From contig OZ024740.1 of assembly GCA_964016885.1 (NCBI GenBank), positions 205,096,001 through 205,160,000 of the forward strand: DNA of 64,000 nucleotides, written 5' to 3'. The DNA comes from Eledone cirrhosa (taxonomy: Eukaryota). Positions within the stretch are counted from its first letter, which is position 1. The number at the start of each line of letters is the position of its first letter. The notes beneath the pieces are model-generated. The model was not told the origin of the DNA. It searched no databases and saw nothing but the letters and a program-made list of their open reading frames with translations. Of the stretch, positions 3,275 to 60,249 are shown piece by piece. The position numbers were made by a program, and so were the translations under genes.

Positions 3275-3745
3275 AACATATATATACATACTACTGTACG
3301 TCTGTATACATATATGTATGTACGTATACATACTTACATTTAAGTAACAGCCGTACTAAGAGTGGGAAATTTCATTTCATTTCATTTTCTCCATTTATCG
3401 TTATCGGTGCACCCGGCCGATTAACCCACTCGATATGCAAATTAGGCTGGTCAGCCGTTAATATGCATAAGGAAAGTACATACTTTCACACAATCAATCA
3501 TCTGGCAGGAAGGTATACGTTGCTGATGATAGCTAATAAGCTTGAAAGTAGTACAGCGTTCCTTTGTCAGTGTTGAACAAACGAGCAATGATGGTTGCTG
3601 GACACTACGGCTTAATACGGGATGTTTGTTTACAAACACACCGAGCATTATAATAAATGTTCGGTGAATCCATACGTACATATATATATGTGTGCATGTA
3701 TGTATATATATATACATACTACTGTACGTCTGTATACATATATAT
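3275..3745 (+). mobile_element. Non-coding hammerhead-bearing element, family HH1 (partial tandem repeat)
   Basis: catactactgtacgtctgtatacata occurs at ~3287 and ~3715; homologous copy at ~59000-59385. Confidence 0.7.
3517..3559 (+). ncRNA. Minimal type I hammerhead ribozyme motif (HH1)
   Basis: acgttg CUGAUGA t-agct-aata-agct-t GAAA gtag UA cagcgt; stem III is mutated relative to ctag in the 59080 copy. Confidence 0.7.
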
Positions 3746-3963
3746 ATATATATTATATATATATATAATATATATATACATATATATTATATATATATAA
3801 TATATATATACATATATATAATATATATATACATATATATAATATATATATACATATATATTATATATATATAATATATATATACATATATATTATATAT
3901 ATATATATAATATATATATAATATAAATATACATATATATTATATATATATATATAATATAAA

Positions 3964-4306
3964 TCATCATTTCATCATTTCATTTTACGTCCACTTTTCC
4001 CTGCTTGCAAGGGTGGGACGGGAACTGATTCTGGCTTGATTTCTACAGCTGGATGCCCTTCCTAACACCAACCTCATTTACAGTGAGGGCTGGGTGCTTT
4101 TTTGCCGTGGCACCTCCACGACCACTTTGCAGTGGAATGATATGGACCCTAGTCCCTATCATCTCATTTCTACAGCTGAGTAAACTGGAGCAATGTGAAA
4201 TAAAGTGTCTTGCTAAAGGAAACAACACATCACCCAGTCTGAGAATTGAACTCACAACCTTTCGATTGCAAGGCCAATGCTCTAACCACTAAGCCATGTG
4301 CCTCCC
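3964..4306 (-). mobile_element. tRNA/CORE-like SINE with chimeric RTE-B/RTE-C tail
   Basis: Near-identical reverse complement of 53335-53668. Confidence 0.88.
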
Positions 4307-4825
4307 ATATACATATATATTATATATATATATATATAATATATATATATATATACACATATATTATATATATGTAATATAAATATACATATATATTATA
4401 TATATATATATATAATATATATATACATATATATTATATATATGTAATATAAATATACATATATATTATATATATATATATATAATATATATATACATAT
4501 ATATTATATATATATATATATATATAATATATATATACATATATATTATATATATATATATATATAATATATATATACATATATATTATATATATATATA
4601 TATAATATATATATACATATATATTATATATATATATATATATAATATATATATACATATATATTATATATATATATATAATATATATATACATATATAT
4701 TATATATATATATATAATATATATATACATATATATTATATATATATATATATTATATATACATATATATTATATATATATATATATTATATATATAATA
4801 TATATATATATACATATATATAATA
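4307..4825. repeat. (TA)n-derived higher-order array (one of many in the window)
   Basis: Recurring ~36-40 bp unit containing taatatatatatacatatatattat. Confidence 0.9.
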
Positions 4826-5545
4826 TAATAATAATAATAATAGTAATGAAATTATTGTGTACAGTGCTCAGGTGCACTACAACTCATCAAAGGTGCATGT
4901 ATAGTACATAGAATAATGTACAAATGTCAGGAAAATAAACAGTGTATGAGGCATGATATAATAACAATAACAATAATGAAATATTGTGTACAGTGCCCAG
5001 GTGCACCACAACTCATCAAAAAAGTGCATGTACAGTACATAGGGCAATGCACAAACATCAGTAAAATGAACAGTGCACGAGTCATGATACACACATGTGT
5101 GCATGTGTATGGAAGGGGTACATCAGGTGTAGTTTTGGCGTATTTTGGGAAGCATGAGTGTCTTAAAGGATGCAGTGTCTCGGCAGCTAACAATTGACGC
5201 AGGCAGTTTGTTCCATGCTTCAGCAACTCTGAGCGTGAAAAAATGTCTGCGAAAGTCATGGGAGCTGTGCTGTTTTCTTATCTTGTAGGCATGTCCACGT
5301 GTGTTAGACACATGGAGATCAAAGAGGCGCTCAGGGTTGCAGTTGGCGAGATGGTTAAAAACTTTGTGGGTATTCACCAAGTCCATTGCCAGACGTCGGA
5401 GCTTCAATGAATCCATACCCAGGGAAGCAAGGCGTTCAGAGTATGGTAGGTGTCTGATGGAGGGTATGCGCTTGGTTGCACGTCTCTGAACAGTTTCCAG
5501 GAGGTCAATGTTCCGAGCAAGATAGGGGTTCCAGACTGATGATGA
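4826..5545 (-). mobile_element. 5'-truncated CR1-type LINE with duplicated 3' end
   Basis: SSVWNPYL...LETVQRRATKRIP...TRGHAYK...FFTLRVAEAWNKLP; same family as 60250-63780; (taa)n tail. Confidence 0.9.
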
Positions 5546-5721
5546 TGTATATATACATATATTATATATATATACATATGTTATATACATATATATATAC
5601 ATATATATTATATATATATATATATATTATATATATATATATTATATATATAATATATATATACATATATATTATATATATATATATATTGTATATATAA
5701 TATATATATACATATATATTA

Positions 5722-6111
5722 TCATCATCATCATCATCAACGTTTAACGTCCGTGTTCCACGCTTGCATGGGTTTGGACGGGGGTAGTCCCACTTGAGGC
5801 AAGAGTGATTGTCTTGCTCGCATAGGACTGTCTGGCAGGTTTTCTACAGTTGGATGCCCTTCCTAACACCAACCACATTTACAGTGTGGGTCTGGGAGGT
5901 TTTTACCGTGTTGCCTACACGGCCACATTACAGCGTGGACTGTGTGTTTTTTTTGTCGTGACACCTACACGATCTCATTTGTTTCGGCCTGGATGGCGCG
6001 GCACCTACATAACTTTACATAGAACGGGGTGGTGTGGCTGGGATGAGGGTGGTGGTGGTGGGACGGGGTGTATTTTGTTAGAGATGCCTACTGGCTGGAG
6101 TAGGTTTTACT
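5722..6111 (-). mobile_element. RTE-A 3' UTR fragment
   Basis: Near-identical to 6363-6760; (gat)n tail. Confidence 0.9.
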
Positions 6112-6362
6112 ATATATATATATATATATTATTGCATATAATATATATATATATATATATATTATTATATATAATATATATATACATATATATTATATAT
6201 ATATATATTATATATAATATATATATATAATATATATGTATATATATATTATATATAATATATATATACATATATATTATATATATATATTATATAATAT
6301 ATATGTATATATATATTATATATAATATATATATACATATATATTATATATATATATTATAT

Positions 6363-58828: not shown

Positions 58829-58883
58829 ACTGCTATATATATTTCAGTGACAGCCATCTTTGGCTGTGACCTCTTCAGGCAGT
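58829..58883 (-). ncRNA. Type I hammerhead (HH10) in a non-coding element ~58680-58995
   Basis: Minus strand: actgc CUGAAGA ggtcacagcca-aaga-tggctgtcact GAAA tatata UA gcagt. Confidence 0.8.
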
Positions 58884-58999
58884 CCGAATTAGTGTGGTAT
58901 AGACAAGTACATATGTTGTTGAGGTGTATAATTTTGTCAATACTCTGATATGCCCAGTTCCTGGTTGGGTTGTTATTTCACTGAGGAACTGGAATGATA

Positions 59000-59385
59000 T
59001 GAAATTTCATTTCCCACTCTTAGTACGGCTGTTACTTAAATATAAGTAATATACGTTCAACAATCTGGCAGGAAGGTATACGTTGCTGACGATAGCTAAT
59101 AAGCTTGAAACTAGTACAGCGTTCCTTCGTCAGTGTTGAACCAGCAACGATGGTTGCTGGACACTACGGCTTAATACGGGATGTTTGTTTACAAACACAC
59201 TGAGCATTGTAATAGATGTTCGGTGAATCCATACGTACATATATATATGTGTGCATGTATGCATGTATGTATATATATACACATACTACTGTACGTCTGT
59301 ATACATATATGTATGTACGTGTACATACTTATATTTAAGTAACAGCCGTACTAAGAGTGGGAAATGAAATTTTGTTTCATTTTTT
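59000..59385 (+). mobile_element. HH1 copy with inverted 5' tag; hammerhead at 59080-59122
   Basis: acgttg CUGACGA tagct-aata-agctt GAAA ctag UA cagcgt; ~59005-59048 is the reverse complement of ~59325-59370. Confidence 0.78.
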
Positions 59386-59442
59386 CCATATATATTATAT
59401 ATATATATATAATATATATATATATATATATAATATATATGG

Positions 59443-59682
59443 AAAAAAGAAAAACAAACACAGACATACATATATGTGTTCAAATCGTAAGGGACCAGAT
59501 TCGCTAAGGTGAAGAGAATACTAACTATAGACAATAGGGTTGTATTTATTTTCTTGATTTATTCTTAAATTGAGTCTGGCAAACCCTATTGTCTATAGTT
59601 AGTATTTTCTTCACCTTAGCGAATCTGGTCCCTTACGATTTGAACACATATATGTATATGTCTGTGTTCGTTTTTCTTTTTT
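59443..59682. repeat. Fold-back with ~97-bp arms
   Basis: 59443-59540 is the near-perfect reverse complement of 59582-59682. Confidence 0.85.
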
Positions 59683-59811
59683 GTTCAGTTATATTATACG
59701 GCTCGGAAAAATCTCTTTGCTAGAGCTAATTCATTGTAAGAGACTATTTTGAGTTTCTAACTCAATATATGCCTTTGATACATTATATATATATATATTT
59801 AATATAGAAAG

Positions 59812-59860
59812 GCTTCTACAGGACTAGAACTGTTTCATTCGGGAGAATTCATCAGGAAGC
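59812..59860 (-). ncRNA. Compact canonical type I hammerhead (HH11) in a fold-back ~59795-59917
   Basis: Minus strand: gcttc CUGAUGA attc-tccc-gaat GAAA cag-ttctagtc-ctg UA gaagc; partial plus-strand copy at 59863-59899. Confidence 0.85.
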
Positions 59861-60249
59861 CCATTCTCCCGAATGAAACAGTTCTAATCCTGTAGAAGCC
59901 ATTTCTATATTAAATATTCATTGCTCCAGTTTATTCAGCTATAGAAATGGGTTGACATCACTGGTGCCAAGCTGTATATACCTTTGCTTGTCCCTTGAAC
60001 AACATTGGTGGTGTGGAGAGGGAACACAGGTATGATGATGATGATGATAATGATGATGACTGCTTCGTATTGAGTACCTTACTTGCTGTGGTTACCACTG
60101 ATTGAACCCGGGATAAACTTTTTTATATATACAGTCGAGTCCACTTAAGAATATAGCATAATCAATTCCAGAATTTATGTACTATGTTTTGTACAGTGCA
60201 TGGGTCCATTTAAGAGTATATCGGATGAGAGTATAGTTCGCATAAGAGT

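Follow-up and report, generated by a model that had tools for sequence, protein, structure and literature searches.

The elements at the locus

The stretch of DNA analysed here, called the window, covers 64,000 nucleotides of the Eledone cirrhosa genome (GenBank assembly GCA_964016885.1, contig OZ024740.1, positions 205,096,001 to 205,160,000 of the forward strand). It contains hammerhead ribozyme motifs of twelve families, HH1 to HH12, set among TA repeats. An earlier note on the same DNA had listed 21 type I hammerheads in 11 of these families. Twelve of the 21 motifs are assigned to the ends of retrotransposons, namely Penelope-like elements (PLEs; HH4 to HH7 and HH9 to HH11), and the other nine to retrozyme-type elements (HH1, HH2, HH3 and HH8). 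The positions of all elements are given in Table 1.

Inspection of each site reveals a type I hammerhead-like layout at all 21 coordinates. The core sought, CUGANGA (or its C3/U4/G8 variants), GAAA and UH joined by stems I-III, is present at 19 of them and at two further motifs of a family that had been missed, HH12. The two remaining sites are damaged and fail the relaxed descriptor: the stem III palindrome is broken at 3517 (HH1) and the cleavage site reads UG at 25224 (HH4a). The strict descriptor gave 14 matches in the window against means of 0.025, 0 and 0 in three sets of 40 dinucleotide shuffles, with at most one match in any of the 120 shuffles and none in the reversed sequence. The relaxed descriptor gave 24 matches against 0-2 (mean 0.45) in 20 local shuffles; these comprise the 19 intact sites, the two HH12 motifs and three pairings rejected as spurious or alternative (the match at 28110 and two alternative pairings at the HH9 sites).

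A chance origin of the motifs in AT-rich repeats has a negligible probability. An Rfam scan of the window, a check proposed in the earlier note, gave 102 matches at E<=10, none of them to a hammerhead family, as chance would predict; the shuffled controls, the other check proposed there, lie far below the observed counts, and every family has one motif per unit. In homologous copies gathered on sequence grounds only, 59 of 4,088 cells (1.4%) differ at core positions and 616 of 17,282 (3.6%) in flanks. Changes on both sides of a stem occur at one pair in HH1 (21 of 75 copies), five pairs in HH8 (2-3 of 35) and three pairs in HH3 (1-2 of 10), although the copies concerned are related and represent few independent events. 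The hammerhead motifs in the window are real.

Families that are ends of coding Penelope-like elements

The genome was searched with each of the 11 families, and the 20-30 best loci per search were examined. As judged from the open reading frames (ORFs) that adjoin them, HH4, HH5, HH6, HH7, HH9 and HH10 are pseudo-long terminal repeat (pseudo-LTR) ends of coding PLEs, five of the Hydra type and one, HH5, of the Neptune type. HH11 is probably the end of a coding Hydra-type element as well. The Hydra-type assignment of HH4, HH6, HH7, HH9, HH10 and HH11 draws on protein motifs, domain order and TA targets: all six are inserted in (TA)n with the hammerhead near the 3' end. A single ORF with the reverse transcriptase (RT) followed by a C-terminal endonuclease is seen in the HH7 frames, and the ORF pieces of HH4, HH6, HH9 and HH10 follow the same order. 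RWK or RWR occurs in the N-termini of HH4, HH6 and HH9 and is interrupted by a stop in HH11.

The link is most frequent for HH7, with an ORF in 15 of 20 loci and intact 808-aa frames in two (L076 and L084) that contain the RWK, DKT, CxCX5C linker, CxxC and CxH motifs. The domain assignment is based on these motifs, and Pfam matched no family to the window ORF of HH7. Membership of the Naiad clade, whose elements have an N-terminal endonuclease and no canonical hammerhead, was ruled out for elements of this type, which have C-terminal endonuclease motifs and hammerheads. The window copy begins at residue 249, and the ATG at 35954 sits in its inverted pseudo-LTR, outside the element's own ORF. 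A protein like the one at 35954 is the mobilising enzyme proposed in the earlier note; the copy in the window cannot itself be a helper, since it has lost the first 248 of 808 residues.

For HH6 the end of an ORF lies 970-1060 nt upstream in 12 of 25 loci, and for HH10 1.25 kb upstream in 3 of 25. For HH9 it lies about 1.5 kb upstream in 7 of 7 long stretches, which were selected for long shared flanks or an ORF match; in one stretch an ORF also starts 144 nt downstream. A broken ORF in a 5,009-bp partial tandem (L273) accompanies HH5; its pieces, read by eye, show DKG, a CX2-5CxxC linker and, C-terminally, GIY-YIG with CCHH, motifs that would fit Neptune or Nematis and suggest a Neptune-type element. 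The HH11 tail runs into the start of a Hydra ORF in 1 of 30 loci, where an N-terminal piece alone is present.

In two loci (L356 and L357) a Hydra ORF lies between HH4b and HH4a, and a single element end comprises the HH4 motifs 25224 and 27588 of the window. The upstream type comes after the ORF, and the spacer start comes next in 11 of 12 classified copies. Its cleavage site reads UG in 15 of 16 readable copies and GG in one; all 55 readable others have UA. Excision of a circle by the two hammerheads was considered and dropped in view of this UG or GG. The upstream motif looks like a fossil end with its captured flank, carried by an active master copy.

HH12 is likely to be Hydra-type, with weak ORF remnants near the centre of its fold-back (E 3.8 and 0.006). 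Penelope-like protein pieces in the fetched loci (including L037-L040) form 45 clusters at 75% identity, a figure that overstates the number of families, as non-overlapping pieces of one family may split.

Non-coding tandem families

HH1, HH2, HH3 and HH8 continue into their own unit, of 428, 1297, 628 and 482 bp respectively. The units have a GC content of 33-38% and no coding capacity, and consecutive units each contain a complete type I hammerhead; HH3 reaches eight full units. Compared with 247 Penelope-like protein pieces from the fetched loci, their best scores, 20-24 bits, fall inside the spread of 20 shuffled versions per unit. By these sequence features the four families are non-coding tandem retrozyme-type elements. 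Their arrays occur on many contigs and are 94-100% identical; the 3' ends are fixed and the 5' ends scattered. The genomic tandem junctions are the same in sequence as the junctions of a circle. A further array (L339, 245-3387) contains 11 hammerhead units with a 310-bp period and belongs to a family absent from the window.

Possible coding parents were judged on 1.5-kb flanks. Two Hydra ORFs near HH1 (L103/L284 and L107/L285) were taken as neighbours and not as parents: no match exists between the two, and the one in L284, similar to the HH4 family, is truncated by the inserted HH1. ORF matches near HH2, HH3 and HH8 loci fall outside the shared sequence, and a suspected ORF vestige behind the second HH2 hairpin scored below zero with an N-terminal profile.

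The earlier note regarded its eleven families as a set of self-cleaving non-autonomous RNAs, and ten of them as lacking coding sequence in the window; in its strict form this makes all eleven independent retrozymes for which the element at 35954 provides the enzyme. The four non-coding tandem families, with nine of the 21 motifs, do correspond to this description, and motifs are kept intact across subfamilies. As a general explanation it is very improbable, and for HH4, HH5, HH6, HH7, HH9 and HH10 it is refuted: extension into a PLE ORF, named in the earlier note as the mark of a truncated PLE, was found for seven of the 11 families (for HH11 by one locus), remnants of the endonuclease region adjoin HH4, HH5 and HH6 within the window itself, and the presumed helper copy is 5'-truncated. 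The broader attribution of the motifs to Penelope-like biology holds, with six families linked to coding PLE ORFs.

At the opposite extreme, all families could be truncated coding elements, the parents of HH1, HH2, HH3 and HH8 having been missed and their tandems being satellite DNA formed after insertion. The searches scored the best 39-40 of 1,291-2,461 candidates per query, and local tandem expansion of pseudo-LTRs has been proposed in Xenopus (Li, Clavereau and Pollet 2026, 10.64898/2026.07.22.740005). This explanation is nevertheless improbable: the dispersal of the arrays, their identity of 94-100%, the fixed 3' and scattered 5' ends and the presence of tandem units in each of the two inverted arms fit repeated insertion of the unit itself from an RNA template.

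Insertion footprint

Past the cleavage site, copies end at one of two fixed positions, where they give way to TA tracts. Examples are +59/+230 in HH7, +49/+137 in HH9, +19/+90 in HH11, +76/+140 in HH5, +75/+188 in HH8 and +56/+133 in HH2. Where both head-to-head arms of a non-coding insertion reach such ends, they use different ones, as seen in nine HH8, six HH1 and three HH2 independent insertions; one HH2 arm is ambiguous. This pattern matches the published layout of PLEs and the two internal start sites that Frangieh et al. 2024 (PMC11167929) observed with a lizard element in vitro.

At a distance of 7-10 nt, a small CTC...GAG stem starts behind all five ends of HH2, HH3 and HH8 and behind 11 of the 12 Hydra ends, against a background of 0.6-0.8%; it is found at neither of the two HH1 ends and at neither of the two ends of the Neptune-type HH5. 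The shared hairpin suggests that HH2, HH3 and HH8 are copied by Hydra enzymes. Behind the HH1 unit at +270 and HH5 at +76 alike come a run rich in T, a stem of the form GTG...CAC, and CGG. That HH1 might use a Neptune-type helper is a weak lead.

5' ends and the extra G

In the flanks of other families 26 HH11 copies turned up incidentally. Every one of them starts in the range -7 to +27 relative to stem I, and 19 start within 12 nt. The corresponding counts are 0 of 17 for HH9, 2 of 15 for HH10, 2 of 19 for HH5 and 2 of 25 for HH4b. Longer HH11 copies do exist (1,663 first-look candidates, against 3,054 for the motif plus tail). HH10 has a 5' stop 117 nt upstream of stem I, with 9 of 31 copies at one base, and HH5 one at -39 to -35, with 10 of 32 within five bases; no 5' stop was seen in HH8 (21 ends), HH2 (7) or HH3 (11). 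Apparent hot spots in HH1 (-143), HH9 (+45) and HH4b (-12 and -3) were discarded as reference or subfamily artefacts.

At the HH11 stop the long copies have C and 19 of 25 short ones have G; the extra G is present in 12 of the 18 junctions that the inverted arm does not explain, the window copy and its duplicate counting as two of these. The long copies also have C at the HH10 stop, and the 12 rows of the short class show G in five, T in three and the templated C in four. An untemplated G has been tied to copying of the cap in LINE-1 (PMC9341517). The HH11 and HH10 stubs may accordingly derive from capped linear templates, and the tandem families from endless, probably circular, ones.

Origin of the elements in the window

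The explanation favoured here, with a probability of about 0.8, is that the window is a pile-up in TA repeats of the truncated ends of at least six coding Penelope-like families and of four protein-free tandem families, all likely inserted by Penelope-type RT-endonucleases. ORF links, tandem non-coding units, two fixed 3' ends per family, arms with one end each and TA flanks are observed directly. The enzyme would nick TA DNA and begin synthesis at two sites inside the RNA, 20-270 nt past the cleavage site. In Hydra-type families each site would be marked by the CTC...GAG hairpin, and retention of this hairpin would let HH2, HH3 and HH8 be copied in trans. For coding families the template would often be the region near the capped 5' end of a linear transcript; the resulting stubs would be short, with a 5' stop that is fixed and carries an extra G, as in HH11 and HH10. 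In the tandem families, predicted hammerhead cleavage and ligation would produce a circle around which the enzyme reads; the lack of a 5' stop and the length of several units are as expected from such a template.

Several observations weigh against this explanation or against single steps of it. Hammerhead mutants of the Anolis element inserted normally in vitro, with no reads ending at the cleavage site (PMC11167929), and only one of nine Xenopus retrozyme dimers cleaved in vitro (10.64898/2026.07.22.740005); these results run against the cleavage step that a circle needs and leave the circle model at moderate odds. Multi-unit arms could arise from long read-through transcripts of existing arrays, and the extra G could stem from a short master copy instead of a cap. 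Several HH1 arms are ambiguous and both HH1 ends lack the hairpin, HH3 has a single end and no inverted arm in 20 loci, one HH8 hairpin is counted only through a GTTC/GAAC variant allowed post hoc, and the second HH11 end is without a hairpin. The HH11 link to an ORF is a single broken locus, and genome searches in which the best 40 candidates were scored leave room for a rare coding parent of HH1, HH2, HH3 or HH8.

The tandem families might also be copied from uncut linear read-through transcripts, with no circle and with hammerheads as rarely cleaving passengers. The dispensability of cleavage in the Anolis assay and the mostly uncleaved Xenopus dimers are in keeping with this, as are the many window motifs that do not fold as monomers by minimum free energy. 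It is an unlikely, though serious, alternative: the core and the stems show conservation, subfamilies differ by compensatory changes, the tandem families have no 5' stop, and coral, mussel and axolotl retrozymes yield circles (Cervera and de la Pena 2020, PMC7229834).

A more detailed version of the favoured pile-up of Penelope-type insertions is tentative and short of even odds. It would give one enzyme class two types of template: capped linear Hydra transcripts, which yield ribozyme-sized stubs, and non-coding circles of HH2, HH3 and HH8, which hijack Hydra enzymes through their hairpins, HH1 depending on another clade. The stubs may then start at the transcription start with a copied cap G, and the HH11 stubs may constitute a self-renewing 140-nt mini-element.

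Abundance and genomic setting

The genome (3.0 Gb) is rich in TA repeats and in pieces of RTE-type LINEs. Motif density was sampled in 53 stretches of 10 kb (530 kb), taken at round coordinates on large contigs and so not strictly random. The relaxed descriptor found 68 motifs, against 2-4 in shuffles, with at least one in 25 stretches. The earlier note had described a community local to one window; in fact 28 of the 68 matches, from across the genome, cluster with nine of the 12 window families. Bootstrapping gives a genome-wide estimate of 2.0-5.8 x 10^5 motifs, or 1.9-4.4 x 10^5 if one array is counted once. Density in the window is about 2.5-3 times the genome average, and under independent blocks the chance of a window with at least 21 motifs is about 5%. 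Motif counts track the number of TA tracts (rho 0.50). The window is an enriched patch and no special locus.

Inventory of the window

Table 1. Hammerhead-bearing elements in the window (window coordinates).
Element	Position	Strand	Description
HH1 copy	3279-3767	+	part of 428-bp non-coding tandem unit; stem III palindrome of hammerhead 3517 broken
HH2	16789-19010	+	1.5 units of 1297-bp non-coding tandem; motifs 17384-17453, 18680-18753
HH3, young	19545-20728	+	1.9 units of 628-bp non-coding tandem; motifs 19758-19838, 20385-20465
HH4b	20746-21226	-	Hydra-type 3' end; motif 20778-20837; upstream limit approximate
HH12	21521-24612	.	fold-back with 1.4-kb arms; motifs 21577-21710 (-), 24422-24555 (+); stem II 101 nt
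HH4 element end	24769-27740	+	endonuclease tail 24784-24999; motif HH4a 25224 (UG, predicted dead); microsatellite-rich spacer broken by RTE-type LINE piece; terminal motif HH4b 27587-27646 and tail
HH5	27840-29936	.	5'-truncated Neptune-type element with inverted pseudo-LTR; ORF end (endonuclease region) 28164-28313; motifs 27978-28015 (-), 29823-29860 (+), U3-A8 core variant
HH6	31632-32523	-	Hydra-type 3' end and tail; motif 31782-31902; ORF remnant (endonuclease region) 32365-32523
HH7	35613-38696	+	5'-truncated Hydra-type element; ORF remainder 36023-37717; inverted pseudo-LTR with tail 35613-36020 (motif 35840-35945, -); 3' pseudo-LTR motif 38529-38634
HH8	41065-41857	+	1.6 units of 482-bp non-coding tandem, short inverted arm; motifs 41217-41300, 41699-41782
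HH9	44545-45047	.	head-to-head stub, Hydra-type; motifs 44572-44637 (-), 44853-44918 (+); tail only on + arm
HH3, older subfamily	56227-56752	+	82-84% identity to young copies; motif 56472-56551
HH10	58680-59000	-	Hydra-type stub with tail; motif 58829-58883; begins at the family's common 5' stop
HH1 copy	58993-59385	+	short inverted arm; intact motif 59080-59122
HH11	59795-59917	.	123-bp fold-back stub; motif 59810-59862 (-)

The one-sided tail of the HH11 copy lies near 60060-60125, beyond a short unrelated insert. Two further fold-backs in TA tracts, at 59429-59698 and 19291-19485, have no complete hammerhead and are probably stubs of other Penelope-like families.

RTE-type LINEs that encode endonuclease, RT and PHD finger (matched by Pfam in the first) occupy 45532-48672 (-), 49918-52809 (+), 6763-9189 (-) and 32721-35526 (+); they too lie in TA tracts, some are nearly intact, and several such LINEs are arranged head-to-head or tail-to-tail (43131-43811). 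A frameshifted LINE with Pfam matches to RT and endonuclease, which we take to be CR1/L2-like, lies at 60210-63678 (-). A tRNA-like SINE at 18767-18950, about 18 nt behind the last HH2 cleavage site, recurs with varying 5' lengths in a short ATT tract at the same place in other HH2 loci (L046, L047, L055, L056, L057 and L277), a strong target preference. Both HH12 arms, too, have this SINE where stem I begins.

A large part of the window is found again about 339-343 kb downstream (G000:C1) at 99-100% identity (L006, L022, L041, L142, L192, L216 and L242). This near-duplicate has one HH3 unit fewer and represents either a recent segmental duplication or an assembly duplicate.

Relation to known elements

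The kinds of element described here have already been published, and the window holds no new class. Hydra-clade PLEs (Craig et al. 2021, PMC8557442) share the C-terminal GIY-YIG-type endonuclease, the RWK, DKT and CxCX5C motifs, a hammerhead near the 3' end, TA targets and inverted 5'-truncated copies with one-sided tails. The present elements differ in the many families that co-exist in one genome, 3' untranslated regions (UTRs) of 0.9-1.5 kb, stem II lengths reaching 101 nt, longer tails (70-170 nt, against 30-40), and the second, predicted-dead hammerhead of HH4. Poseidon of Anolis (PMC11167929) belongs to a different clade; there, too, a pair of start sites on the downstream side of the hammerhead accounts for the tail, targets are AT-rich and both strands are primed. 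Its start sites lie in an AC-rich stem-loop inside the ORF, whereas those proposed here would lie in front of CTC...GAG hairpins upstream of the ORF.

With metazoan non-LTR retrozymes (PMC7229834; 10.64898/2026.07.22.740005), the tandem families have in common non-coding units with one type I hammerhead each, a GC content of 33-38%, and a dispersed distribution beside PLEs. HH2, at 1297 bp, exceeds the published size ranges of 150-450 bp and 51-972 bp. An insertion footprint and a hairpin common with one clade point to a specific helper. A PLE origin of animal retrozymes is already in print (10.64898/2026.07.22.740005).

The pseudo-LTR hammerheads of metazoan PLEs (Cervera and de la Pena 2014, PMC4209133) likewise have a palindromic stem III and a short stem I, fall into many families per genome with mostly truncated copies, and include the U3-A8 core variant seen in HH5. 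The count estimated here, 2-6 x 10^5, compares with thousands of minimal motifs per genome in that study and with 126,247 canonical motifs in axolotl (PMC7229834), a rough comparison given that descriptors differ.

The earlier note knew of no catalogue of such elements for cephalopods. Literature searches on hammerhead ribozymes, retrozymes and PLEs in octopus, cephalopods and molluscs listed none, none of these searches being aimed at the hairpin or the extra G, and neither 'ribozyme' nor 'hammerhead' occurs in the available portion of the Octopus vulgaris repeat paper. One cephalopod example is already listed: Hydra-1_Obim, an octopus Hydra element with a hammerhead, in the supplement of PMC8557442.

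Implications

To this background the present analysis adds a family-by-family sorting, a hairpin that sequence comparison places in three non-coding families but not in the fourth, a contrast in 5' ends, and an estimate of motif number. On this estimate, a far smaller genome would hold more motifs than were counted in axolotl. The elements bear on the mobility of animal retrozymes and on the part that hammerheads play in PLEs; published support for the helper link consists of co-occurrence and pseudo-LTR similarity. Coding and non-coding families lie side by side here, with young copies and with shared ends and hairpin, so that the choice of helper, the choice of start site and the use of circles become directly testable. 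If one enzyme class does use both linear and circular templates, a shared RNA signal would assign retrozyme families to specific helpers.

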